Notes under the pieces: generated by a model
Databases searched by the model: none
Told to the model about the DNA's origin: nothing
The model's input: the letters and a program-made list of their open reading frames with translations, nothing else
From: Patescibacteria group bacterium
Lineage (GTDB): Bacteria > Patescibacteriota > Patescibacteriia > 2-01-FULL-39-33
Direction: 5' to 3'
Length of the DNA: 64,000 nt
Assembly (NCBI GenBank): GCA_041650895.1
Contig: JBAZKF010000001.1
Coordinates: forward strand, 17,685 to 81,684
Part shown: positions 1,952 through 62,239 of the stretch, piece after piece
Position numbering within the stretch: position 1 is the stretch's first letter
Layout of the letters: each line of letters starts with the position of its first letter
Program-made: the position numbers and the translations under genes

Positions 1952-2896
1952 ATGAAACCACTTAAGATAATTTTCGTTGGTACGCCGGAATTCGCTGTTC
2001 CCTACTTGCGCGGCTTGTTGGCTGATGCCGATTTTGAGGTTATCGGTGTGATCACTCAGCCGGATCGTCCTAGTGGGCGCAAGCAAGAATTTACTTCTCC
2101 ACCGGTCAAGTTTTTGGCGGTGGAAAAAAAACTAAATATTTGGCAGCCGGAAAGATTAAGGGGTAATCAAGAATTATTGGAAGAAATTAAGAAAATAGAT
2201 TTTGATTATTTGGTAGTCACGGCTTACGGCTTGATTATTCCCGCAGAATTTTTGGCTTTGGCTAAGTCCGGCAATATTAATGTCCATCCGTCCCTATTGC
2301 CTAAATACCGGGGCGCTTCCCCTATTCAGAGTGCCATACTTAATGGCGAGACCGAGACCGGTGTGACTATTATGTTAATGGACGAGAAAATGGATCATGG
2401 AGCGATTTTAACGCAAAAAAGTATTATTTTAACTGGTGAAGAAACTAATGAGTCATTGCATTTTCAGTTAGCCGAGTTGGGCGTGCCCTTATTGGTTGAA
2501 ACCATTAAGGATTTTACCGCCGGAAAGATTAAGCCACAGAAGCAGGATCATGAGATGGCGACATTTTGCACTACAATCGATAAGGAACAGGCGCAGATTG
2601 ATTGGAATAAGACGGCTGAAGAAATAAAAAGGAAAATTTATGCTTTTTATCCTTGGCCGGTGGCGTGGACGACTTTAGGCGGTTTGCGACTTAAAATTTT
2701 TCCGCCGGTCGCGATTATTGCCAACGTTATGGGCAGTTCTGAGCCGGGGCAAATCAAAGTTGACGGCGGTTTGGCTGTTTGTTGTGGCGAGAGGTGGCTG
2801 GAATTAAAACAATTACAGTTGGCAGGTAAAAAGGCTATGTCTGCATCGGATTTTGTCAGGGGTTATGCCGGCTTGGCTGGCCAAGTATTGAAATAA
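1952..2896 (+). CDS. fmt: methionyl-tRNA formyltransferase
   Basis: KIIFVGTPEFAVP N-terminus, NVHPSLLPKYRGASPIQ formyltransferase core; 6 nt after def. Confidence 0.9.
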   Translation: MKPLKIIFVGTPEFAVPYLRGLLADADFEVIGVITQPDRPSGRKQEFTSPPVKFLAVEKKLNIWQPERLRGNQELLEEIKKIDFDYLVVTAYGLIIPAEFLALAKSGNINVHPSLLPKYRGASPIQSAILNGETETGVTIMLMDEKMDHGAILTQKSIILTGEETNESLHFQLAELGVPLLVETIKDFTAGKIKPQKQDHEMATFCTTIDKEQAQIDWNKTAEEIKRKIYAFYPWPVAWTTLGGLRLKIFPPVAIIANVMGSSEPGQIKVDGGLAVCCGERWLELKQLQLAGKKAMSASDFVRGYAGLAGQVLK

Positions 2897-2919
2897 ATAT
2901 TGAAATAAAGTGGTAAAAT

Positions 2920-4230
2920 TTAGGAACGTCCTTGCGGGCGTTTTTTTGTTTGTCTGGTTATTAAATAAATACACAGTAAAGCGGTTAAATCCATGAATAA
3001 TTCTTCCCGTTGGAAGTAGTTGGTATAAATGGACATAATACAGACGAAAGAAAAATAGGCGAATAACATGGTGGTCAGCGGATTAGGCCGGCGCCAGGCA
3101 AAAGCGTAAATCACTCCCAATAGCACGCCCCAGCCCAGTCCGGCTAAAGCAATCCCCCACCAACCGAAGTCCAGAAAGTATGCAAACAAGAAAGTAGCAG
3201 TAATCCACCAGGGTAAAAATATTGCCGGCCAATCAATGGGCGCGGAAAATTGTGGCCAGTGAAAAATTTTTAAAGCTGAATTAAAAACCGCTAACTCGGT
3301 TCGGCCGAGATAATATTGTCCCGCATAGAGTTCCATTCCCCTGTCCAGCGCCTGCAGATTGAAAGACGGGATTAAATAGATCGGCGTTAAGAATTGCAAG
3401 TAAGGCGGTAAGCTGACTTGGGAAATGGTTGTCAGATAAGAAAAAGGATTATACTCTCCGGTATAGTTGTAATCGCGATAAGTGATGAATTGCCGAAAAG
3501 CCGGAATGGCAATGGAAACGCTTAAGATTACTACTCCAGCTAAAACAGTGCTAACTAAGAATTTTTTGAATTTAATGGTCTCCAGGTTAATAATAAGATA
3601 ACCGAAATAGCACAAGAGTACAGTAATTACGATGATTAGGCGGGAGGCATACAAGGATAAGGTGATGAAACCGATAATAATCGTCAGCCAATAAAAAATT
3701 TTCTTTCCGCGAGTCAGACGTTGTTTGTCTAAGATTAATTCCAAGAAAGACAGCGGAATAAATAAACGGGGTAAAAGAGATAGCCACTCAAAAACACCGA
3801 AGATTTCTTTGTTAATGATAAAGCGCATTTTGTCGGGAATGGAAGATAGGATGGGCAGAGTGCCGAAGCGGCTGAAGATGTAAATATTAGCCGCAATACT
3901 GGCCAAAACCATCAGGCCGATTACCCAAGTTATTAGGCGATTATCCATTCGTGGTCTTTTTTCTGTAGTCGCCAGCTTTTTGGCAGTTAAATGCTTGGCT
4001 AAATAATATGCCGCAATAAAGAGCGGGAAAAACAGGCTTAATGCCAGCCATAAGCGCCAGGTCAAAGGCCGCTCCAGCGGACTTAAATGCAACTGGCTGA
4101 CGGCCAGAGCGGCAGACCAGAGAGATAATAAAAGTTTGGCCGGAGAGAATCTTTCCCGGCCAAAAAAATAAAACCAGCCGAAGATAATTGCGGCTAGAAT
4201 AAAAATAAAAAATAGAAACCAAGACAGCAT
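2920..4230 (-). CDS. polytopic membrane protein, possibly O-antigen ligase/polymerase-like
   Basis: 436 aa with many predicted TM helices; directly downstream of a GT2 gene. Confidence 0.45.
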   Translation of the reverse strand: MLSWFLFFIFILAAIIFGWFYFFGRERFSPAKLLLSLWSAALAVSQLHLSPLERPLTWRLWLALSLFFPLFIAAYYLAKHLTAKKLATTEKRPRMDNRLITWVIGLMVLASIAANIYIFSRFGTLPILSSIPDKMRFIINKEIFGVFEWLSLLPRLFIPLSFLELILDKQRLTRGKKIFYWLTIIIGFITLSLYASRLIIVITVLLCYFGYLIINLETIKFKKFLVSTVLAGVVILSVSIAIPAFRQFITYRDYNYTGEYNPFSYLTTISQVSLPPYLQFLTPIYLIPSFNLQALDRGMELYAGQYYLGRTELAVFNSALKIFHWPQFSAPIDWPAIFLPWWITATFLFAYFLDFGWWGIALAGLGWGVLLGVIYAFAWRRPNPLTTMLFAYFSFVCIMSIYTNYFQREELFMDLTALLCIYLITRQTKKRPQGRS

Positions 4231-4239
4231 AAAAAATAA

Positions 4240-5019
4240 TTAGCTCAAGCTGTTTTTTATAAAATATAGCAAGGCTGACTTAAAGAAACGCCATTGATTA
4301 GTTACGACTTTTTGTTGCCCAAAGCTTTTTCCGCCGTAGTGGACGATTTTTGTTTCCGGCGTATAGATTATTTTGTAACCGGCTCGGCTGACGCGTCGGC
4401 AGAAGTCAACCTCCTCAAACCAGACAAAAAATCTTTCATCCAATAACCCGACTTTATCCAGAACTATGCGCGGAATGAGCATAAAAGCGCCCATCACCTG
4501 TTCTACTGCTTGTTCTTTCGTGTAATCGAAATCTTCAGCCAAGTAATGGCCGATTGATTTTAAATGAGGGAAGAGCTTAGGCAGTTTTAGGAGCATAAGG
4601 ATTACCGGCCAAAGAGTCGGCAAACGCCTGACTGAGGGTTGTAAACGGCCATCGGGATAAACCATTTGCACACCCAGAACTCCGCAGGTTGAATGACGTT
4701 TAGCGGCCGCCAATGATTTGCTTAAGGTGTCGGGAAATATTTCGGTGTCAGGATTAAGCAATAGAACATACTCCCCCGCCGCTTGCTTAATGGCCAGATT
4801 GTTGGCCCTAGCAAAGCCAAGATTCCTGTCACTGGCGATTAAGTGTGATTGGGGGAATCTTTTATTAACCATTTCCGTCGTGCCATCGCTGGAAGCGTTG
4901 TCCACGACAAAAACTTCCACAGTCAAGTCGCCTTGATTCCGGTAAATTGAGTCAAGGCATTTCTCCAATAGGTCTTTAACTTTATAGGAGACAATGATGA
5001 TGGAGAGTTGCGGTTTCAT
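4240..5019 (-). CDS. family 2 glycosyltransferase (alternative TTG start at 5061)
   Basis: MKPQLSIIIVSYK...VVDNASSDGT GT-A fold motifs; ATG at 5019 preceded by TGGTATAAT. Confidence 0.75.
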   Translation of the reverse strand: MKPQLSIIIVSYKVKDLLEKCLDSIYRNQGDLTVEVFVVDNASSDGTTEMVNKRFPQSHLIASDRNLGFARANNLAIKQAAGEYVLLLNPDTEIFPDTLSKSLAAAKRHSTCGVLGVQMVYPDGRLQPSVRRLPTLWPVILMLLKLPKLFPHLKSIGHYLAEDFDYTKEQAVEQVMGAFMLIPRIVLDKVGLLDERFFVWFEEVDFCRRVSRAGYKIIYTPETKIVHYGGKSFGQQKVVTNQWRFFKSALLYFIKNSLS

Positions 5020-52209: not shown

Positions 52210-52266
52210 AAGTATTTTTTATTCATAACATAATGTTACCAAAACATCATAAAAAAATCCAATGTT

Positions 52267-52315
52267 CACATCTCGGTATCAAAAATATCCCTAAGGGGGT
52301 GTTTTGTCGCATCTG
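52267..52315 (-). promoter_or_regulatory. conserved ~50-nt upstream element, copy 1 (terminator hairpin plus promoter region), upstream of the HD gene
   Basis: about 85% identical to 56112-56164; minus-strand sense CAGATGCGACAAAA-hairpin-TATTTTTGATACCGAGATGTGAAC. Confidence 0.5.
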
Positions 52316-52326
52316 CGGGACAGGGA
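52313..52326. repeat. 14-nt direct repeat of the tRNA-Gln(CUG) 3' end (putative distal att site of the island)
   Basis: CTGCGGGACAGGGA identical to 61635-61648. Confidence 0.55.
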
Positions 52327-52489
52327 TTTACGCGCTCGGTTGTCGCCAAAAAGCGACAACCCCACTTGTCCTGAGTAGCCGTCAATCGCTCCCAGGGTCG
52401 CGATTGCCGTCGCTCAATTATCCGTCTCGGCTTCTGCCTCGACTTATATCTCGCTCGCTACCTGTTCGAATCACTCACATAGACAAATA

Positions 52490-52520
52490 AAAATACAGCT
52501 AATTAAGCTGTATTTTTATT
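52490..52520. terminator. bidirectional intrinsic terminator
   Basis: ATACAGC-TAATTAA-GCTGTAT perfect hairpin flanked by an A-run and a T-run. Confidence 0.55.
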
Positions 52521-52629
52521 TGCTGACTGACTCGGTCTAGAACCGATCCATATCAAGTATTATAAGGGTTTTCGGAATTATTTTCAGAGGCAATTTTAGG
52601 CGTCTCGGTCGGGTATAAATATGTTATGA

Positions 52630-52781
52630 AATGCGACAAATGCGACAGTACTTTGATACTATTTTAAATATAGAATTTTGGACAAAAAAATGAGACAAAT
52701 GAGACACTAAAACAGGATTTTCAAAAAGAAACACAAAAGTGTAATTTGTGTCTAATTTTAGATTAAAATTTGATGAGACAG
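52630..52781. repeat. iteron-like short direct repeats in a non-coding AT-rich stretch
   Basis: AATGCGACA x2 (tandem), AATGAGACA x2 (tandem) plus a third TGATGAGACAG; hairpin ACACAAA...TTTGTGT. Confidence 0.5.
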
Positions 52782-52871
52782 TAAAAAATTGACTGCCTCA
52801 TTTTCAATAAATAAAAACCGCCACCCAAGGATAAACCCTGAGTGGCGTGATGTGTGCAATTGCCGCGTTGC

Positions 52872-53243
52872 TTAGCGACTGATTGGCAGGAATCCCAGCG
52901 ATCCCCAATGATCGCGTTCGAGGGAGCGATCAAACGTCAATCCGTCGGAGCCGAAGTGGCCAATAGAAACGCGATCGTAGTTTCCGCCATAAGAGACTGT
53001 CGGCGTTGCAGGCGGAATCAAATCGGGTTGATTGAAATGAGCGCTGAGCAGCTCGTCGAGCGTGGCCAGCCGATAACCCCACCACTTGGAAAGGATGGAG
53101 ATTCGTCTGAAATTCGCGCCGCGCGCCGCTTGGAAGAAGGCCAATTCGCCTGCACCTTGCGGGCGGTAAGCCTTTTGCCGCAGCACTTTGCCGCGCAAAT
53201 AGGCCACGATAACCCACAAATAATCCAGAATAGTCTGTTTCAT
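52872..53243 (-). CDS. hypothetical protein
   Basis: 123 aa; AGGAGAG Shine-Dalgarno 7 nt before the ATG; lies in a locally GC-rich patch with overlapping alternative ORFs. Confidence 0.5.
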   Translation of the reverse strand: MKQTILDYLWVIVAYLRGKVLRQKAYRPQGAGELAFFQAARGANFRRISILSKWWGYRLATLDELLSAHFNQPDLIPPATPTVSYGGNYDRVSIGHFGSDGLTFDRSLERDHWGSLGFLPISR

Positions 53244-53257
53244 GTCGTATCTCTCCT

Positions 53258-53779
53258 TTATTGGATTTCGTTGATGGCTTTAGTGAGCGAATCGCTGTCT
53301 TTTGCGTAGCTGACGCGTTGCGCCGTTTCAAAAAGTTTGAATATACCATCACAGAAGTTTCCGCGATGAGTATTCTGATAGAGGGCAATCATCTTTTGGA
53401 TAACGATCATGAGCGCCCGCGCCTTCTTGGAATCTTTCGATTCATCCAAGATATGGTCAGTTCTGAGCTCTTCCTCGAATCTCATCTCGCCCTTGCGAGT
53501 ATCGGAGAGATAGTATATGGATACTCTGACGTTTTCATTCTTGTAATCCTTCGGTTCGACGACGATTCCCTCGATTTCCCAAATCGTTGCGGTCGGATGC
53601 CGCCTTCTGGCGGAAACAATCTTGACGGTAATATCATACGCGTCATGGGTGTGGATATAGTCGGGCGTATGAAATTCTACTGTCCGCTCACCCAGCTCAG
53701 TATCGAAAAGGGCAAGCATGAGATCGAGTTTTGATGGACCGCCGTCCACCAGGTGTGTTTCTTCTTTTCTTTGTGTCAT
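53258..53779 (-). CDS. hypothetical protein
   Basis: 173 aa; AAGGAG Shine-Dalgarno before the ATG. Confidence 0.5.
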   Translation of the reverse strand: MTQRKEETHLVDGGPSKLDLMLALFDTELGERTVEFHTPDYIHTHDAYDITVKIVSARRRHPTATIWEIEGIVVEPKDYKNENVRVSIYYLSDTRKGEMRFEEELRTDHILDESKDSKKARALMIVIQKMIALYQNTHRGNFCDGIFKLFETAQRVSYAKDSDSLTKAINEIQ

Positions 53780-54342: not shown

Positions 54343-54603
54343 AATGATTTATTATAAAATATATACCACTTGAAAATGAAAAAGATTTTACGCCTGAAGA
54401 TTTTGCTTGGTATAATATGACAATAATAATTGCTGATAATAAAAAACATGACATCTCAAATGATGAGTTGAAGAACAGAGTCAAAGATTTCCTTTTATTT
54501 GCAATAAGATAATATTGAATACTAAAAATACCACGGCAAAACCGTGGTATTTTTGAAGCTAAATAATTGAGGGGACTCAGTCATTTGAATTAGCGTGTAT
54601 TGG

Positions 54604-54750
54604 CTGGAGGTTTTTAATAAAATCCGAACCGAATTTCAGAAAAGCTTGCCCTGAGCGAAGTCGAATGGGTCATAATCGGTCGGGCGGAACCTGCCTGCCG
54701 GCAAACAGGCGAAACATTTGGACGACTGAGGCGGAATTGCAATTTCCAAT
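54604..54750 (+). repeat. ~150-bp island repeat element R1
   Basis: about 90 nt near-identical to R2 (AAATCCGAACCGAATTTCAGAAAAGCTTGCCCTGAGCGAAGTCGAATGGGTCATAA...), shared 3' end GAAACATYTGGACGRCTGAGGCGRAATTGCAATTTCCAAT containing palindrome GAAATTGCAATTTC. Confidence 0.75.
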
Positions 54751-54775
54751 CTTTTAGTGATATTAATAATAGAAT

Positions 54776-56111: not shown

Positions 56112-56164
56112 CCACATTTCGGTATACAAAAATACCCCTAAAATAGGGGCATTTTGTCGCATCT
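56112..56164 (-). promoter_or_regulatory. conserved upstream element copy 2
   Basis: CACATTTCGGTATACAAAAATACCCCTAAAATAGGGGCATTTTGTCGCATCTG; hairpin CCCCTAAAATAGGGG. Confidence 0.5.
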
Positions 56165-56318
56165 GGAGGTCTTTAATCAAATCCGAACCGAATTTCAGAA
56201 AAGCTTGCCCTGAGCGAAGTCGAATGGGTCATAACCGGTCGGGCGGAATTCCCCCCCAAACCCCTCCTTCCGCCCGACCGAAACATCTGGACGGCTGAGG
56301 CGAAATTGCAATTTCCAA
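56162..56318 (+). repeat. ~150-bp island repeat element R2
   Basis: contains a perfect 12-bp hairpin GGTCGGGCGGAA-(TTCCCCCCCAAACCCCTCC loop region)-TTCCGCCCGACC. Confidence 0.75.
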
Positions 56319-56338
56319 TTTTTCTTTGGCGGCATTAA

Positions 56339-56773
56339 TTATATAATTTTATCAACCCACAGAACAGTGCCTTCTCTTTTAAATCCATATCTTTCGATAA
56401 ACTTAGAAAATAACTCCTGATCTTCGGCATTCACACAAAGCATAATATAAGTATATCCAAGATCTTTAACTTGCTTCAATCCTTCCTCTGTTAATTTTGC
56501 GGCCACTCCCAATCCGCGAGCGGATGGTGTCACGTAAAGATTTTCCCAAGTAATTTTCTTTGTTGGTATGTGAGCGGAATAAAAAGAAAAGCCAATAATT
56601 TCATTTTTTGTTTTTGCCACTAACAGAACATCACTAGGACTTTGACACCATTTTTTTAATTGTTCTTTACTCCAAAAAATTCCACTAGCACTAGCAAATT
56701 CTTTCTGTAAAGCACCTAGTTTATAAATCTCATCAATGTCCGTAATATTCATTCTAGATATTTGAAAATCCAT
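56339..56773 (-). CDS. GNAT family N-acetyltransferase
   Basis: acetyl-CoA binding motif region ...ARGLGVAAKLTEEGLKQVKDLGY...; 4 nt after the cyclodipeptide synthase gene. Confidence 0.8.
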   Translation of the reverse strand: MDFQISRMNITDIDEIYKLGALQKEFASASGIFWSKEQLKKWCQSPSDVLLVAKTKNEIIGFSFYSAHIPTKKITWENLYVTPSARGLGVAAKLTEEGLKQVKDLGYTYIMLCVNAEDQELFSKFIERYGFKREGTVLWVDKII

Positions 56774-56776
56774 ATA

Positions 56777-57478
56777 TTATTCGATATCGGCTATGCCTGT
56801 TTTATTTATAATTCTTAATTTATTCCTTAAACCATTATACTCATTACTTTTAATAATTTTTACTACTAATTCATCAAATTTACCTAATCCCGGATACAAA
56901 ATAACTGAATACAATTCACCACGATTAATAATCGAAACTCCATTCAAAAATAATGGCAATTCTTGTAGGACATAAAGAGCCACTGACTCGGCTCGATCTT
57001 TTGAAATAGTGCGTCCTCGTATTTTTAGCATTTCGTTAGAAATTTCCATTACCGAATTATAAAAAGCCTTTTGTTCAGAAAATTCCCTCATTAATACCTC
57101 TCGTTGTTTAACAAATTTTGGCGTTAAAGCATCATCATAGTTGGCGATAACAACCTTCTTTTGATCTTTTGCGGGCAATCTTGAGACGATTACTTCGACT
57201 TCTTGTCTTTTCTCATCTTCCATTTCGAAAGCCTTTTTTAATGATTGTGCTCTGCTTAAATTATCAATATACCTTAAATTAGAAACCTGAAGTCTCCCTG
57301 GGATTAAAATTAACAAGGATTTTTTAGTATGTATGAGGCCAAAATCAATAAGTTTTTCAAGATTATTTTTCGTGAACCATTTATTACCAAAACTTAAACC
57401 TATCCAAAGATTATATCTTTTTTTAAAGATATAATCTTTGGGAATTAATAATGTTTCTTTTATTTGAATTATTTCCAT
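56777..57478 (-). CDS. tRNA-dependent cyclodipeptide synthase (CDPS), XYP-type
   Basis: IGLSFGNKWF (catalytic Ser in the G-x-S-x-GN-x-x-F motif, compare AlbC IGISAGNSYF), LYVLQELPLF (AlbC NYVLAEAPLF; Tyr/Glu catalytic pair), SVILYPG (Y-P); about 233 aa as expected. Confidence 0.75.
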   Translation of the reverse strand: MEIIQIKETLLIPKDYIFKKRYNLWIGLSFGNKWFTKNNLEKLIDFGLIHTKKSLLILIPGRLQVSNLRYIDNLSRAQSLKKAFEMEDEKRQEVEVIVSRLPAKDQKKVVIANYDDALTPKFVKQREVLMREFSEQKAFYNSVMEISNEMLKIRGRTISKDRAESVALYVLQELPLFLNGVSIINRGELYSVILYPGLGKFDELVVKIIKSNEYNGLRNKLRIINKTGIADIE

Positions 57479-57514
57479 ATACGATTAATCTTATATGATC
57501 ATACCAAAATTATT

Positions 57515-57739
57515 TTATTCACAATAATAAAATACGCCACCATATTGATTTTTTTCTTGAAAGCTTAGGCTATCATAATCTTCAACACAGCTTCTAAATT
57601 TATCGTATTTATCTTCAGATTCATAATAATTATCTGACCACTCCTCAGCAGTCATACTTTCATATTTACCAATACTACAACCACTTAAAAACAGGAGAAA
57701 TAGTAATGACATAAATACAATGTAATATTTTTTTATCAT
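57515..57739 (-). CDS. small lipoprotein
   Basis: 74 aa; signal peptide with lipobox LSGC; acidic, 4 additional Cys. Confidence 0.5.
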   Translation of the reverse strand: MIKKYYIVFMSLLFLLFLSGCSIGKYESMTAEEWSDNYYESEDKYDKFRSCVEDYDSLSFQEKNQYGGVFYYCE

Positions 57740-57789: not shown

Positions 57790-59604
57790 TTATTTAATCC
57801 CAGCCACTTTTTTTTCTTCGTCTGTCATTAGATGCGCGGGATTAATAGACTCCCACCAATAATTATTAAGACCTCTTTTTTGTATCGTTGTGATGTATTC
57901 AATTAATTTTAGTCTTACCTCAGTTTCTTGTAAATTCATTAATCCTGCAAGCTGTATACGAATATTTTTATCAAATAGAATTTTTTTTACGAATGGCATA
58001 ATTCTCTCTCCATAATATCTGCCAAAATCAGCCCATAAAGGTTCCCCATTATGCTCGGACAGTACAACAAGTAGGAAATTGGCCTGAAATTGAAAATTTT
58101 CAATTTTTCCATCCATTTTTGGTACTAATTCAATAAGCCAATCTTGATTTTTTAAATATTCCCTAATGTATTCATTCACTTTAGTTGAATGACCAGTCAG
58201 GGCACGAGTATAATGAAAATGATTATCTTCTAAAAAAGACATCGGTGGCTGATCAAAGTAATTTGGATTATCGAACTTAGTTTCAAGTAAAATTTTGAGT
58301 GGCGCATAATTATCTCTGGCTATACAAATAGTAGCTATAATGTATAAGATTTCAACAATTATAACTTCCGGAACCGCAATCAGAGAAATTAGACCGGATT
58401 TATTATTTGTAAGTTCAACTAAAGCTGTCAGATATTCACAGTATATTTTTATCTGATTTTTGTTGCCATATACTGAAATTGTAGCACCTAAATATATATA
58501 CTGATAACTACTCGCTTCCATGCGCGAAATAGCCTCTGGTATGCGATCCACATCCTGACCAATTTCCTGAAAAATTATTTCCCATTCCTTTTTTATTTTA
58601 GTGATTAATTTGTGGCACAATCTCTCAAAATTTAATATATTAATAGTTTCCACACTAGACCCGGAAGAACCAACAACAAAATTAATTGTTTCCTGCAAAA
58701 GTTTGTTTTTTTCATCCATCGTTAAATCAATCACTGGCACAGAAAAAATAGCATTTTGTAATTCTGGCGTTTTTGGTATCTCAATGGTTTCGGGCTTTAA
58801 ATGCAACCTCTTTTTAAACACTGGGAGAGTGAGATTACCCTCTAATTTACCTAACATGGTTGGTGTTTGAGTGTGTTTCCATTTGTCCCTAGCACGAGAG
58901 CTTACACCTTCTGCGATTGGACTAAAAATGTCTGTAGCTGAAAAATATTCACTAGGACGATTTTTTTGGAGTTCATCAAGTACATAATATGTAAATAAAC
59001 CATTTTTAAGTTCAGGATCTTCGATTGAAAGTTCATCATCTTTACTGGCAGTAAAAATCATACTACCATTACCAATTACTGTATTTGAAAATGATTTAAT
59101 ATTTTTAAATCCCTTGGTATTGGGGATTGGGTAATTTTTGGCATTTTTACTTACTGACCCACTAAAACAAGAATCAATAAAAATTAAATTTACTTTTGAT
59201 TTTAGGGATGTGAAAATATTTTTTATATCCTCTACTGATAAACAAGTATTTACAATATCATGAGTTGCATCATACGGCACTAAAAAGCTAAGTCCTGAAT
59301 TAATATTATTAGGATCATCAACTAATGCTCCGTGACCGGAATAGAAAAAGAAGAAAACGTCATCTGACTCGATATTATCCAGTAATTCTTTTCCTAACGC
59401 AGTCTTGATTTCTGAAAGAGTCGCCTCTTCATCAACTAAAAGTTTATTATACCCAATATTGCTAATATTTTGTTGAAATAATGAGAAAAACTCTGTTGCA
59501 TCTTTTTCTGCAAACGCTAGATTTGTAATTTGATTCTTATGCTTAGAAATTCCAATCGCAACAATATGATGTTTCATGAAATTAATTATTTTAGTAATTC
59601 CCAC
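57790..59604 (-). CDS. caspase-like (peptidase C14) domain protein with ~350-aa unknown C-terminal domain
   Basis: HIVAIGISKH...FFFYSGHGA (His) ... LIFIDSCFSG (Cys) dyad; GTG start with GGGAG Shine-Dalgarno, alternative ATG at 59577. Confidence 0.7.
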   Translation of the reverse strand: MGITKIINFMKHHIVAIGISKHKNQITNLAFAEKDATEFFSLFQQNISNIGYNKLLVDEEATLSEIKTALGKELLDNIESDDVFFFFYSGHGALVDDPNNINSGLSFLVPYDATHDIVNTCLSVEDIKNIFTSLKSKVNLIFIDSCFSGSVSKNAKNYPIPNTKGFKNIKSFSNTVIGNGSMIFTASKDDELSIEDPELKNGLFTYYVLDELQKNRPSEYFSATDIFSPIAEGVSSRARDKWKHTQTPTMLGKLEGNLTLPVFKKRLHLKPETIEIPKTPELQNAIFSVPVIDLTMDEKNKLLQETINFVVGSSGSSVETINILNFERLCHKLITKIKKEWEIIFQEIGQDVDRIPEAISRMEASSYQYIYLGATISVYGNKNQIKIYCEYLTALVELTNNKSGLISLIAVPEVIIVEILYIIATICIARDNYAPLKILLETKFDNPNYFDQPPMSFLEDNHFHYTRALTGHSTKVNEYIREYLKNQDWLIELVPKMDGKIENFQFQANFLLVVLSEHNGEPLWADFGRYYGERIMPFVKKILFDKNIRIQLAGLMNLQETEVRLKLIEYITTIQKRGLNNYWWESINPAHLMTDEEKKVAGIK

Positions 59605-59792
59605 GCTTCAACTCCCAAGGCATTGGCTAATTTATATAAATTTTCTAATGTAGGGTTTACCCGGCCACTTTCCACCCGGCAGATATAGGCGCGGTCAATT
59701 CTGCTTGAACGAAAAACGTCGCCTTGAGTTAGGCCTTTTTCCTCTCGTATCCGTTTAAAATTAACGGCAAGTTTTTTGCTTAATTTATGCAT
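59586..59792 (-). CDS. XRE-family helix-turn-helix transcriptional regulator
   Basis: 68 aa; IREEKGLTQGDVFRSSRIDRAYICRVESGRVNPTLENLYKLANAL. Confidence 0.75.
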   Translation of the reverse strand: MHKLSKKLAVNFKRIREEKGLTQGDVFRSSRIDRAYICRVESGRVNPTLENLYKLANALGVEAWELLK

Positions 59793-59951
59793 AGTTATTC
59801 ACAGATATTTTACCAATTATTGTATATCTTAACAATATTGTTGTATAATACAATAGAGAAGTGGGGGTTTGTGTTAAAAAAAAGAAAAAGTTTGATTTTG
59901 TCCAAAATATAGTTCGAGCCGATTTTTTTAATCTGGTTCTTTGGCGGTTTT

Positions 59952-60069
59952 ATTCCGCCTCAGCCGTCCAGATGTTTCGGTCGGGCGGAAGGAGGGGTTT
60001 GGGGGGGGAATTCCGCCTGACCGATCATAATTTTTGTTGAAATTCGGTTCGGATTTGTTCATAAACACC
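59952..60069 (-). repeat. island repeat element R3 (inverted orientation relative to R1/R2)
   Basis: reverse complement shares AAATCCGAACCGAATTTCA and the GG(T)CRGGCGGAATTCCCC...CCTCCTTCCGCCCGACCGAAACATCTGGACGGCTGAGGCGGAAT hairpin region with R2. Confidence 0.7.
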
Positions 60070-60144
60070 CAGCCAGTTTCGCTTTTCATTTTTTAAAACA
60101 GAATTCCAACCGTTTTTTGGCTTAAATTCAAATTTTTTGCCTTG
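60070..60144. repeat. 75-bp perfect inverted repeat, left copy (flanks the recombinase gene)
   Basis: exact reverse complement of 61563-61637, checked base by base. Confidence 0.85.
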
Positions 60145-60206: not shown

Positions 60207-61694
60207 ATGAAATACTTTCTTTACGCCCGCAAGTCGACAGACGAAGAGGAGCGTCAAGTCCTTTCAATTGAAGCCCAGCTCGCAGAGCTGAAGGAGTTAG
60301 CCGCCAAAGAAAAATTGGAAATTGCTGACTCGCTCTGCGAGTCTAAAACCGCCAAAGAACCAGGCCGAAAAATTTTCGGCGAAATGCTCGCTCGGATTGA
60401 AAAAGGTGAAGCCGACGGAATTTTAGCGTGGCACCCAGATAGATTGGCCAGAAATAGCGTTGATGGTGGGAAGATTATCTACATGGTGGATATTGGCCAG
60501 ATTAAAACGCTGAAATTCCCGACTTTTTGGTTTGAGAATACTCCGCAAGGTAAATTCATGCTCAATATCGCTTTCGGCCAGAGCAAATACTATATTGATA
60601 ATTTAAGCGAAAATGTTAAGCGCGGATTCAGACAAAAGTTAAGGCGTGGCGAATATCCCAACAAAGCGCCTATTGGCTATCTTAATGACCGCATGGCTAA
60701 AACCGTGCTTATTGATCCTCTGCGCGCCAAGCTGATAATCAAGATGTTTGAGATGTACAGCACGGGAGAATTTTCGCTTAAATTTCTAAAAGATAAGTTT
60801 TGCGATATCGGTCTGACCAGTAAGCGAGGAAAAATCCTGACTGTCGGCATGATTTCTAATATATTGAGCAATCCCTTTTATTGCGGAGTATTCAAGTTTA
60901 ATGGCGAAATATACCAAGGCAAGTACGAGCCGATTATTTCCAAGAAGCTTTTTGATGAAGTTCAGGCGGTAATGCGGGATCGCGGCCGGCCGCTCGGGCA
61001 AGACAAGCACGACTACGCATTTACAGGACTAATGAAATGCAAATGCGGCGCCTGCATTACCGCTGAACGGCAAAAAGGCCATATCTATTATCGCTGTACG
61101 AAAAAGCTCGGAGCCTGCGATGAAAAGTATATCCGCGAAGAAAACTTGCTGGAGCAATTCTATGGCCTTTTTCAAAAAGCTTCTTTGTCTGATGACTGGA
61201 TTGACAAGATGCTCGCCAAACTGGACGAGGAACAGAAAAGCGATATGAAGTCATCTATTGGTCTGATTGATGAGGTTAAAGCGCAAATTGGTGGCCTAGA
61301 GAGCAAGTTAGACAAGTTATTAGATGACCGATTAGAAGGGTTATTGGACAAGGACGACTATTTGCGCAAGAAAGAACAGCTCATCAATCAAAAAATCACT
61401 TTTGAGGACAAAATCCAGTCAATCAGGCAAACAGGAAATAATTGGCTCGAACCGATGAGAGAATTCCTTTTCGCCAATAAACAAACCAAAAAAGTCGCCA
61501 ATGGCGGCGACCTTCTAGAGATTAGAGCATTTATTAAAAAAATCGGCTCGAACTTTATTTTGCAAGGCAAAAAATTTGAATTTAAGCCAAAAAACGGTTG
61601 GAATTCTGTTTTAAAAAATGAAAAGCGAAACTGGCTGCGGGACAGGGACTCGAACCCCGATACCACCCTCCAGAGGGGCGTGTCCTACCATTAG
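60207..61694 (+). CDS. large serine recombinase (resolvase/invertase catalytic domain plus recombinase and zinc-ribbon/coiled-coil domains)
   Basis: N-terminal YARKSTDEEERQVLSIEAQ (catalytic Ser region), RLARN, CxxC...CxxC zinc ribbon; 3' end runs through the right IR and antisense into the tRNA. Confidence 0.85.
   Translation: MKYFLYARKSTDEEERQVLSIEAQLAELKELAAKEKLEIADSLCESKTAKEPGRKIFGEMLARIEKGEADGILAWHPDRLARNSVDGGKIIYMVDIGQIKTLKFPTFWFENTPQGKFMLNIAFGQSKYYIDNLSENVKRGFRQKLRRGEYPNKAPIGYLNDRMAKTVLIDPLRAKLIIKMFEMYSTGEFSLKFLKDKFCDIGLTSKRGKILTVGMISNILSNPFYCGVFKFNGEIYQGKYEPIISKKLFDEVQAVMRDRGRPLGQDKHDYAFTGLMKCKCGACITAERQKGHIYYRCTKKLGACDEKYIREENLLEQFYGLFQKASLSDDWIDKMLAKLDEEQKSDMKSSIGLIDEVKAQIGGLESKLDKLLDDRLEGLLDKDDYLRKKEQLINQKITFEDKIQSIRQTGNNWLEPMREFLFANKQTKKVANGGDLLEIRAFIKKIGSNFILQGKKFEFKPKNGWNSVLKNEKRNWLRDRDSNPDTTLQRGVSYH
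61563..61637. repeat. 75-bp perfect inverted repeat, right copy, abutting the tRNA-Gln 3' end
   Basis: CAAGGCAAAAAATTTGAATTTAAGCCAAAAAACGGTTGGAATTCTGTTTTAAAAAATGAAAAGCGAAACTGGCTG. Confidence 0.85.
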
Positions 61695-61705
61695 ACGATC
61701 CCGCA
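61635..61705 (-). tRNA. tRNA-Gln (anticodon CUG)
   Basis: hand-folded cloverleaf; U1-A72; anticodon loop CUCUGGA; T-loop TTCGAGT; about 80% identical to the tRNA-Gln(UUG) at 29.6 kb. Confidence 0.8.
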
Positions 61706-61790: not shown

Positions 61791-61799
61791 TATAACACT

Positions 61800-62150
61800 G
61801 AGTATGACGGATAGTTACTCTTTGGCCTTAGGCCGAAGAGAGGAAAGTCCGAACACCCTTTTCGGCGCAAGCCGGAATGTCGCGGTAATGGGTAACGCCC
61901 ACCCGGACAGTCGTAAGGCTGGCCGAGGACCAGTTCCACAGAGACAATACTAACGAGATGCGCAAGTATTTCGCGAAAGGTGAAAAGTGTAGCGAAGTAT
62001 TAAGTTGAGAGTGAGATATCTCCTCAAATTAATGCCACCCTACTCAACTCCCAGCGATGGGCAGTTGTGGTAAACTCTACCTGGTGCAACCCCGTTTCGG
62101 GGGCTTGATCATGCCGGTAACGGCAATGACAGACAGATGACTATCGTTTT
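61800..62150 (+). ncRNA. rnpB: RNase P RNA (bacterial type A-like)
   Basis: universally conserved GAGGAAAGTCCG(AAC)... P4 strand, GGTAACGCC, terminal P1 pairing GGATAGT/ACTATC, followed by T-run. Confidence 0.7.
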
Positions 62151-62206
62151 TTACGGCCGCAAGGTTAGTAAAAAATACAGAATTCGGCTTATAGTCATAT
62201 TCAGTT

Positions 62207-62239
62207 AAAAAATACTTCGCTGCTGCGAGGTATTTTTTT
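62207..62239. terminator. bidirectional intrinsic terminator between rnpB and rnhA
   Basis: A6-TACTTCGC-TGCT-GCGAGGTA-T7. Confidence 0.6.

Follow-up and report, generated by a model that had tools for sequence, protein, structure and literature searches.

We analysed a stretch of 64,000 nucleotides (nt) from a Patescibacteria group bacterium (contig JBAZKF010000001.1, positions 17,685 to 81,684 of the forward strand; hereafter the window) and found that it encodes a caspase-like protease of 595 amino acids (aa) whose C-terminal domain (CTD) is a real, conserved domain that had not been described previously. The functional unit is this single protein and not the gene pair that it forms with a small XRE-family regulator encoded just upstream. 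The caspase-CTD protein most likely works by itself as a switch for suicide or defence, and, by analogy with characterised systems, we give slightly better than even odds (about 0.55) to the reading that it acts in abortive infection as an effector and a sensor/autoinhibitor combined in one chain. As judged from sequence, what would be new here is the undescribed CTD and the unusual host range, and what would be of a known kind is a defence candidate in which a single protein carries both effector and regulator.

The gene product and its protease domain

A first-pass annotation made from the nucleotide sequence had placed a 68-aa XRE gene immediately ahead of a 604-aa protein with a caspase-type His-Cys dyad. 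The XRE gene was indeed found there, its stop codon being separated from the caspase-CTD start codon by 8 nt. The long open reading frame (ORF) also exists (57790..59604, minus strand) and gives 604 aa if begun at GTG, but the real start yields a shorter product. Since all of the 81 full-length homologues begin with MK.H(I/L) at the position equivalent to the ATG at 59577, and since the database protein that is 100% identical to the window protein has 595 aa, this ATG is almost certainly the true start. The GTG at 59604 was discarded on the homologue alignment, and residue numbers below follow the 595-aa version.

Both motifs of the proposed dyad were present in the first ~250 aa, YSGHGA being encoded at 59343-59326 and DSCFSG at 59175-59158, and the same region matched Pfam Peptidase_C14 (PF00656) with a score of 65.9 bits (cut-off 21.4, E 5.8e-18). 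Across the 81 aligned homologues, which were 38-70% identical to the window protein, His82 and Cys137 were invariant together with Asp135, Gly81, Gly83, Ser139 and Gly140. When the family profile was run against PDB sequences with HMMER, SGHG was aligned on YSGHG and DSCFSG on DSCHSG of Arabidopsis metacaspase-4 (AtMC4), and the same two motifs aligned with the Trypanosoma metacaspase MCA2 (TbMCA2); the assignment of His82 and Cys137 as the C14 catalytic pair was borne out in this way. The full-length AlphaFold model (mean predicted local distance difference test score, pLDDT, 86.7) retrieved the MALT1 paracaspase in a Foldseek search with an E-value of 5.8e-10, and also Geobacter GSU0716 and caspases 3, 6, 8 and 9. 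Profile, dyad and fold establish that the window protein belongs to Peptidase C14, clan CD. With the dyad intact, it is predicted to be an active protease of the metacaspase/orthocaspase/paracaspase type.

The basic-specific metacaspase/paracaspase branch typically has an Asp two positions ahead of the catalytic Cys, as part of an acidic S1 pocket. Because this residue, Asp135, was invariant in the family and aligned to the Asp of DSCHSG, the protease probably cleaves after Arg or Lys. The loop of aa 139-170, which was disordered in the full-length model, holds an invariant Lys147 and the nearly invariant Lys155 and Lys161, and a conserved LPVFKK segment (aa 251-256; consensus YLPVFKKxL) closes the protease domain before the linker. 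Both the Lys loop and the LPVFKK segment are candidate autoprocessing sites.

The CTD is a conserved and previously undescribed domain

When aa 271-595 were modelled alone with the family alignment, an all-alpha structure was obtained with a pLDDT of 94.5 and a predicted template modelling score (pTM) of 0.90. Conserved residues of the CTD were G395, P403, Q498, D517-F-G-R520 and W575-x-S577. Foldseek revealed no fold match to the CTD among 350,542 PDB chains (best E 0.31, template modelling score <0.3) and none among the viral structures of BFVD. Likewise, no sequence match was obtained in the PDB by phmmer, nor any Pfam match at E<=5 when six diverse members were tried. The sole library match was to the PADLOC model PDC-S65, with an E-value of 1.9e-8 over profile positions 347-541 of 592. 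The mean pairwise identity within the family was 39.9% for the CTD versus 55.6% for the protease domain, so that the CTD diverges faster.

These results refine what had been proposed for the C-terminal part of the protein. The last ~350 aa, said to carry no recognisable motif, gave no Pfam match at the threshold above. The CTD matches nothing in Pfam, PDB or BFVD, but the proposal that the module fits no described family needs qualification, as an existing, unvalidated PADLOC candidate covers the domain. A housekeeping identity for the domain, which would have spoken against a defence function, was found neither in Pfam nor, with the structure model and Foldseek, in PDB or BFVD.

The CTD accompanies three kinds of enzyme

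When the CTD was compared exhaustively by phmmer with 1.84 billion cluster representatives, only 60 CTD proteins came back, and their N-terminal parts were classed by local hidden Markov models (HMMs). The N-terminal part was a caspase in 30 of the 60, a Ser/Thr kinase in nine and a RelA/SpoT domain in three, and the other 18 were short proteins or fragments. On distant CTD carriers, Pfam confirmed the Pkinase and RelA_SpoT assignments. An HMM built solely from caspase-family CTDs retrieved the fusions of both other classes, kinase and RelA/SpoT, with E-values of 1e-21 to 1e-31 and with almost the full domain aligned, and an alignment across the classes had G395, P403, Gln498, DFGR(F/Y) (517-521) and WxS (575-577) in common. 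The kinase domains of these fusions matched the PADLOC PD-T4-6 models (1e-26 to 5e-43), and their RelA/SpoT domains matched PADLOC PDC-S33. In the RelA/SpoT-fused and stand-alone versions too, the PDC-S65 match was confined to the CTD.

A profile search of a 5.8-billion-protein collection added more than 20 further clusters, with stand-alone CTD proteins of ~300 aa. Three independent stand-alone CTD genes each lay 35-38 nt downstream of a gene for a Ser/Thr kinase of 260-280 aa. Such operons, in which a kinase gene is followed by that of a ~300-aa CTD protein, are a natural split version of the kinase-CTD fusion. Fused and split forms of this kind are classical evidence for physical cooperation between the CTD and its partner enzyme. 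By sequence comparison, then, the CTD appears to be a constant module that has been joined in evolution to a caspase, a Ser/Thr kinase and a RelA/SpoT nucleotide pyrophosphokinase. Kinase-CTD and RelA-CTD fusion genes were also seen as singletons.

Two-gene operons of the split kinase and CTD type were recorded at loci L195-L197 and L205-L210. Those at L208-L210 adjoin DUF433/DUF5615 pairs that resemble toxin-antitoxin systems.

PDC-S65 is a candidate single-gene system of PADLOC-DB v2 (models PDLC05061 and PDLC05060). It resembles the window protein in length and in being a stand-alone single gene, and the CTD matches it; however, no full-length match was obtained, as only the CTD aligned and the N-terminal ~340 profile positions did not. 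Because the caspase, kinase and RelA/SpoT versions all leave the N-terminus of the profile unaligned, PDC-S65 proper has another N-terminal domain. The CTD analysis thereby gives PDC-S65 an interpretation at the level of domains.

The caspase-CTD gene stands alone in scattered hosts

Homologues were inspected at 25 loci, namely 22 genome or metagenome loci and those of the three closest homologues (64-70% identity). No partner gene was conserved beside the caspase-CTD gene in these 25 loci, the neighbours varying from locus to locus, and no small ORF consistently abutted the caspase start in the 22. The caspase-CTD family is stand-alone and rare.

Its bacterial hosts were Patescibacteria, Saccharibacteria, Dadabacteria, Thermodesulfobacteriota, Delongbacteria, a Bdellovibrio relative and Gammaproteobacteria, and its archaeal host was Aenigmarchaeota (DPANN). 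One pair of homologues, from Patescibacteria and Aenigmarchaeota, shared 63% identity. The scatter over such distant hosts thus indicates horizontal spread. No full-length relative was found in IMG/VR and no tblastn match in the INPHARED phages, and a phage origin of the gene was ruled out on these two negatives.

When 136 neighbours in the 22 loci were scanned with PADLOC, DNA methyltransferases, type IIG enzymes and type I specificity subunits were the most recurrent. Individual neighbourhoods held a Schlafen-group-3 helicase with HNH and REase_MTES_1575 proteins (L008), AbiTii with a LexA-like repressor (L089), DNA methylases (L001, L084 and L189), a NucS-like/DUF5655 protein (L082) and a Rep protein (L086).

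A distant full-length homologue was also present in a cultured bacterium, Pseudoalteromonas piscicida 2515 (L203; NZ_CP074588.1, about 507109-508857). It has 582 aa, 22% identity and a Peptidase_C14 domain, lies directly downstream of the gene for a 581-aa DUF4209 protein and is unannotated in the PLSDB table. This homologue could serve as an experimental handle.

The XRE gene belongs to a portable regulatory cassette

The first-pass annotation had read the XRE regulator and the protease as a two-gene module and had suggested looking for the pair in metagenomes. Such a search did not uphold the module. No XRE homologue was found at the 22 loci, by phmmer and by inspection of the upstream ORFs, or at the three closest caspase homologues, and a conserved XRE-caspase pairing was ruled out on this count of 0/25. 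Moreover, XREs that are 79-87% identical to the window XRE precede unrelated cargo genes: a gene for a 264-aa protein at L190 and L192-L194, and genes for a 130-aa and a 440-aa protein at L191. No Pfam or PADLOC match was obtained for the cargo genes behind the XRE homologues. They too may encode toxic or defence functions under tight control. The positions concerned are 2652-4404 at L190 and 984-2978 at L191, and the cargo includes a 159-aa protein alongside the 264-aa one.

Upstream of the XRE gene, two abutting 18-bp boxes of the form ATTGT-N8-ACAAT make up a candidate operator. The pattern matched twice in the 64-kb window, both times at 59819-59854, with 0.08 matches expected. The double box was kept at each of the four XRE-homologue loci whose upstream DNA extends far enough, and at L191 the half-sites were unchanged, the three substitutions all falling in the spacers. 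A promoter-like site (TTGTTA-17-TAAAAT with a TG extension) overlaps the operator, in a region whose total of promoter-like sites was not above that of shuffled sequence. Because the same XRE and operator precede unrelated genes, and because the XRE is absent at the 25 caspase loci, the XRE and its double operator appear to form a portable regulatory cassette with exchangeable cargo.

The XRE gene could also be viewed as the antitoxin of a type II toxin-antitoxin system, neutralising a caspase toxin and repressing the operon. The order of the genes, with a small helix-turn-helix (HTH) gene first and the putative toxin 8 nt downstream, agrees with such a view, as does a weak similarity of the XRE to HipB/Y4mF-type antitoxins (NCBIfam, below cut-offs). 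We nevertheless consider it very improbable. Besides the missing pairing and the unrelated cargo of near-identical XREs, the 68-aa protein is essentially an HTH alone (Pfam HTH_3 spans aa 13-62), which leaves no toxin-binding extension, and its best PADLOC match is the Control_protein of restriction-modification systems (1.1e-10). On these comparisons the XRE would be neither a cognate antitoxin nor a dedicated partner of the caspase.

The controller (C) proteins of restriction-modification systems offer a closer likeness. Such proteins time the expression of toxic restriction enzymes. As here, a small HTH_3 gene lies directly upstream of a potentially toxic gene, and tandem palindromic operators precede the regulator's own gene, as was found for the XRE cassette. 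The cargo differs, being caspase-CTD or other proteins here and not a restriction endonuclease; the scanned island ORFs contained no methyltransferase or restriction enzyme by Pfam or PADLOC.

A proposed single-chain switch for abortive infection

Relatives of all three enzyme types linked to the CTD are toxic effectors in described or candidate phage defence. For the window protein we infer toxicity, a trigger, autoinhibition, the cleavage specificity given above and repression by the XRE. In the proposed mechanism, the CTD would bind and restrain the protease domain. A trigger, most plausibly a component of a phage or mobile element, would act on the CTD and lift the inhibition, and the freed protease would then cut cellular proteins and bring about growth arrest, that is, abortive infection. 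The logic would be that of a fused toxin-antitoxin, as in CapRel, and the output would parallel that of the promiscuous Arg-specific caspase of type IV Thoeris; in a more general wording, the protease would be held in check by the CTD or would act through it. In this genome, the caspase gene would have been captured downstream of the XRE and double-operator cassette within a tRNA-Gln island, where the XRE would probably autoregulate the operon and limit or delay expression of the toxic cargo, like C proteins.

The earlier suggestion of a defence or toxin role is plausible in the light of the PDC-S65 match of the CTD, the defence-type neighbours of its relatives and the location on a mobile island. 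Several points weigh against our interpretation. The full-length model had a pTM of only 0.55, leaving the orientation of the protease relative to the CTD uncertain, and intramolecular inhibition is therefore without structural support. The CTD is fairly conserved for a presumed arms-race domain. PDC-S65 is an unvalidated computational candidate, and no paper mentioning it by name was found, while other PDC candidates have been tested. The recurring defence-type neighbours were counted without a background control set and are only suggestive. Finally, several homologues lie amid housekeeping genes, dnaA/dnaN and those of ribosomal proteins among them.

Many bacterial orthocaspases have non-immune roles or roles that are unknown. 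The window protein could accordingly be a stress-response or regulatory protease of this sort, an ordinary accessory gene whose CTD recruits cellular substrates. Apart from this general background, the homologues that sit among housekeeping genes have no flanking defence gene, and the CTD is moderately conserved. Against these stand the patchy spread of the family across domains of life at high identity (for example 63% between one patescibacterial and one aenigmarchaeotal protein), its rarity (60 among 1.84 billion representatives), the presence of the CTD on kinase and RelA/SpoT warheads that match defence models, the PDC-S65 match itself and the position of the gene on a mobile island. Taken together, they make a non-defence orthocaspase unlikely.

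A further alternative draws on the type IV Thoeris system, whose effector is a promiscuous Arg-specific caspase (Rousset et al., bioRxiv 10.1101/2024.10.24.620036). In a system of that style, a TIR protein or another enzyme encoded elsewhere would produce a nucleotide second messenger to which the CTD binds. One homologue has an upstream TIR gene: on a Delongbacteria contig (L006), a TIR_2 gene (1324-2202) ends 11 nt before a close caspase-CTD homologue (2214-3199; 64% identity over aa 1-329). This locus may represent a variant coupled to TIR, in a manner that recalls type IV Thoeris. However, the adjacent TIR gene that defines the system is missing from the window and from nearly all relatives. 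No TIR was detected among the window ORFs with the L006 TIR in phmmer, which is a weak test, or among the scanned island genes with Pfam. A jackhmmer search for TIR over all retrieved loci gave only L006 and L056, and the caspase at L056 lacks this CTD. A TIR gene thus adjoins a family member in one of about 25 loci, and a TIR partner for the window caspase was rejected on these searches. In addition, kinase-CTD and RelA-CTD genes are likewise singletons, and the split systems pair the CTD with an effector and not with a signal generator. We regard a Thoeris-style mechanism as improbable.

The proposed single-chain switch also has other parallels. CapRel-type proteins, in which a toxSAS RelA/SpoT enzyme is joined to a C-terminal phage-sensing autoinhibitor, have the same layout of an N-terminal toxic enzyme and a C-terminal regulatory domain, and RelA/SpoT-CTD fusions exist in the present CTD family. 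They differ in that the effector in the window is a protease and in that the CTD had no PDB fold match (best E 0.31), so that homology to the CapRel domain was not found. PD-T4-6 is a single-gene defence system with a Ser/Thr kinase, and the kinase-CTD relatives matched it at 1e-26 to 1e-43, mainly over the kinase domain, whereas a caspase takes the kinase's position in the window protein. CapRel and PD-T4-6 would be functional analogues and not homologues of the window protein. The caspases associated with EAD or EACC1 in NTP-dependent conflict systems belong to the same protease superfamily, and the NCBIfam model caspase_w_EACC1 scored 60.9 bits. This is below its cut-off of 140, and the window caspase has no EAD or EACC1 partner. 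Membership in that group was ruled out; an Enterobacter plasmid example with an EAD1 partner lacks this CTD.

A bolder version of the favoured reading can be put forward tentatively. The CTD would be a new trigger-sensing, autoinhibitory module that gates at least three toxic enzymes, in cis or as a separate subunit, and the window protein would be a single-chain caspase immune receptor found among the ultra-small bacteria of the candidate phyla radiation (CPR) and the DPANN archaea. If true, it would provide a direct, adaptor-free link from pathogen sensing to caspase activation in prokaryotes. Under the favoured mechanism itself, the protein would be a minimal route on a single polypeptide from trigger recognition to caspase-type proteolysis, one that needs none of the TIR, CRISPR or STAND partners of known bacterial caspase systems. 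The CTD would be a new, reusable regulatory module that can be dissected across three effector classes and in a natural split form. The family shows an exchange of such genes between DPANN archaea and CPR bacteria, two groups with supposedly sparse immune repertoires. The XRE and double-operator cassette flags several cargo genes at other loci as candidate toxic functions under tight control.

The locus and its mobile island

The coordinates of the features are collected in Table 1.

Table 1. Features of the caspase-CTD locus and its surroundings, in window positions
Feature	Position	Strand	Basis or remark
Gene of the 595-aa caspase-CTD protein	57790..59577	(-)	Stop codon 57790-57792, start ATG 59577
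Peptidase C14 (metacaspase/orthocaspase-type) domain, aa 1-255	58813..59577	(-)	PF00656, Foldseek, family profile
Catalytic His82 codon, in YSGHGA	59332..59334	(-)	Invariant in 81 sequences
Catalytic Cys137 codon, in DSCFSG	59167..59169	(-)	Invariant in 81 sequences
Flexible linker, aa 256-285 (~30 aa)	58723..58812	(-)	pLDDT <50 for aa 257-270
All-alpha CTD, aa 286-595 (~310 aa)	57793..58722	(-)	Model, PDC-S65 match, CTD homology
XRE/HTH_3 controller-like regulator, 68 aa	59586..59792	(-)	Pfam HTH_3 1e-13
Two abutting 18-bp boxes ATTGT-N8-ACAAT, candidate XRE operator	59819..59854		Palindrome scan and homologue loci
Promoter-like site TTGTTA-17-TAAAAT with TG extension, overlapping the operator	59807..59835	(-)	Consensus scan only
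Downstream genes: lipoprotein 57515-57739 (74 aa), CDPS 56777-57478, GNAT 56339-56773	56339..57739	(-)	ORFs and Pfam
Island integration apparatus: large serine recombinase gene 60207-61694 (+), tRNA-Gln(CTG) 61632-61705 (-)	60207..61705

Downstream of the caspase-CTD gene, and on the same strand, lie genes for a lipoprotein, a tRNA-dependent cyclodipeptide synthase (CDPS) and a GNAT acetyltransferase, with successive gaps of 50, 36 and 3 nt. No terminator-like site was found on the minus strand between these genes in a scan. Because of the short gaps and the missing intergenic terminators, all five genes from XRE to GNAT may be transcribed as a single unit under XRE control. The caspase could then be imagined as serving the CDPS cluster, for example in processing or self-resistance, and as being transcribed together with the three downstream genes. 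This is extremely improbable, given that neither the CDPS, the GNAT nor the lipoprotein gene was found beside the caspase at any of the homologue loci inspected. These three genes are context and lie outside the conserved unit.

The proposal that the caspase gene lies on a mobile island next to a CDPS gene was confirmed. The GC content is 0.31-0.34 over 54-60 kb versus 0.40-0.47 elsewhere in the window, a large serine recombinase gene is located at a tRNA-Gln gene, and the CDPS gene is the second gene downstream of the caspase. The recombinase gene bounds the low-GC stretch, and the island would have been integrated at the tRNA-Gln gene by this recombinase. Lacking a stop codon ahead of the tRNA-Gln gene, the recombinase ORF reads 63 nt into the reverse complement of that gene, with the C-terminus ...WLRDRDSNPDTTLQRGVSYH. 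The tail of the recombinase is therefore set by the integration junction.

A 75-nt inverted repeat with 100% identity (60070-60144 and 61563-61637) is present on both sides of the recombinase gene, with associated 30-nt segments at 59903-59932 and 61533-61562. The repeat takes in the final ~105 nt of the recombinase ORF, as far as the 3′ end of the tRNA-Gln, and its left copy is permuted, a ~137-nt insert displacing the adjoining 30-nt segment. The arrangement points to a recombinase segment that can invert, or else to a product of recombination at the attachment site.

Another element, of ~150 nt, occurs three times (54601-54754, 56163-56337 and, inverted, 59937-60075) with 91-98% identity and is confined to the low-GC island. 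It begins with a degenerate copy of the tRNA-Gln 3′ end (TGGCTGG...ATCCGAACCGAAT) and carries a 13-bp GC-rich hairpin. The copies bound two cassettes, one with a DUF5672 gene and the gene of a 158-aa protein and the other with the GNAT, CDPS, lipoprotein, caspase and XRE genes, as if cassettes had accumulated in tandem at the attachment site. Rfam detected only RNase P RNA and tRNA-Gln over 52-64 kb and gave no match for the ~150-nt repeat, whose folding was no better than that of shuffled sequence (z = -0.68) and which was absent from IMG/VR. A known RNA was ruled out for it on these negatives.

At the far edge of the island, a region of ~1.1 kb with normal GC content (52230-53400) contains only mutually overlapping ORFs on both strands and has no Rfam match; it may represent the remains of a gene, or a non-coding region that has escaped recognition. 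Directly beyond the tRNA-Gln, a gene for class A bacterial RNase P RNA (61799-62207, 137.8 bits) marks the chromosomal side of the island junction.

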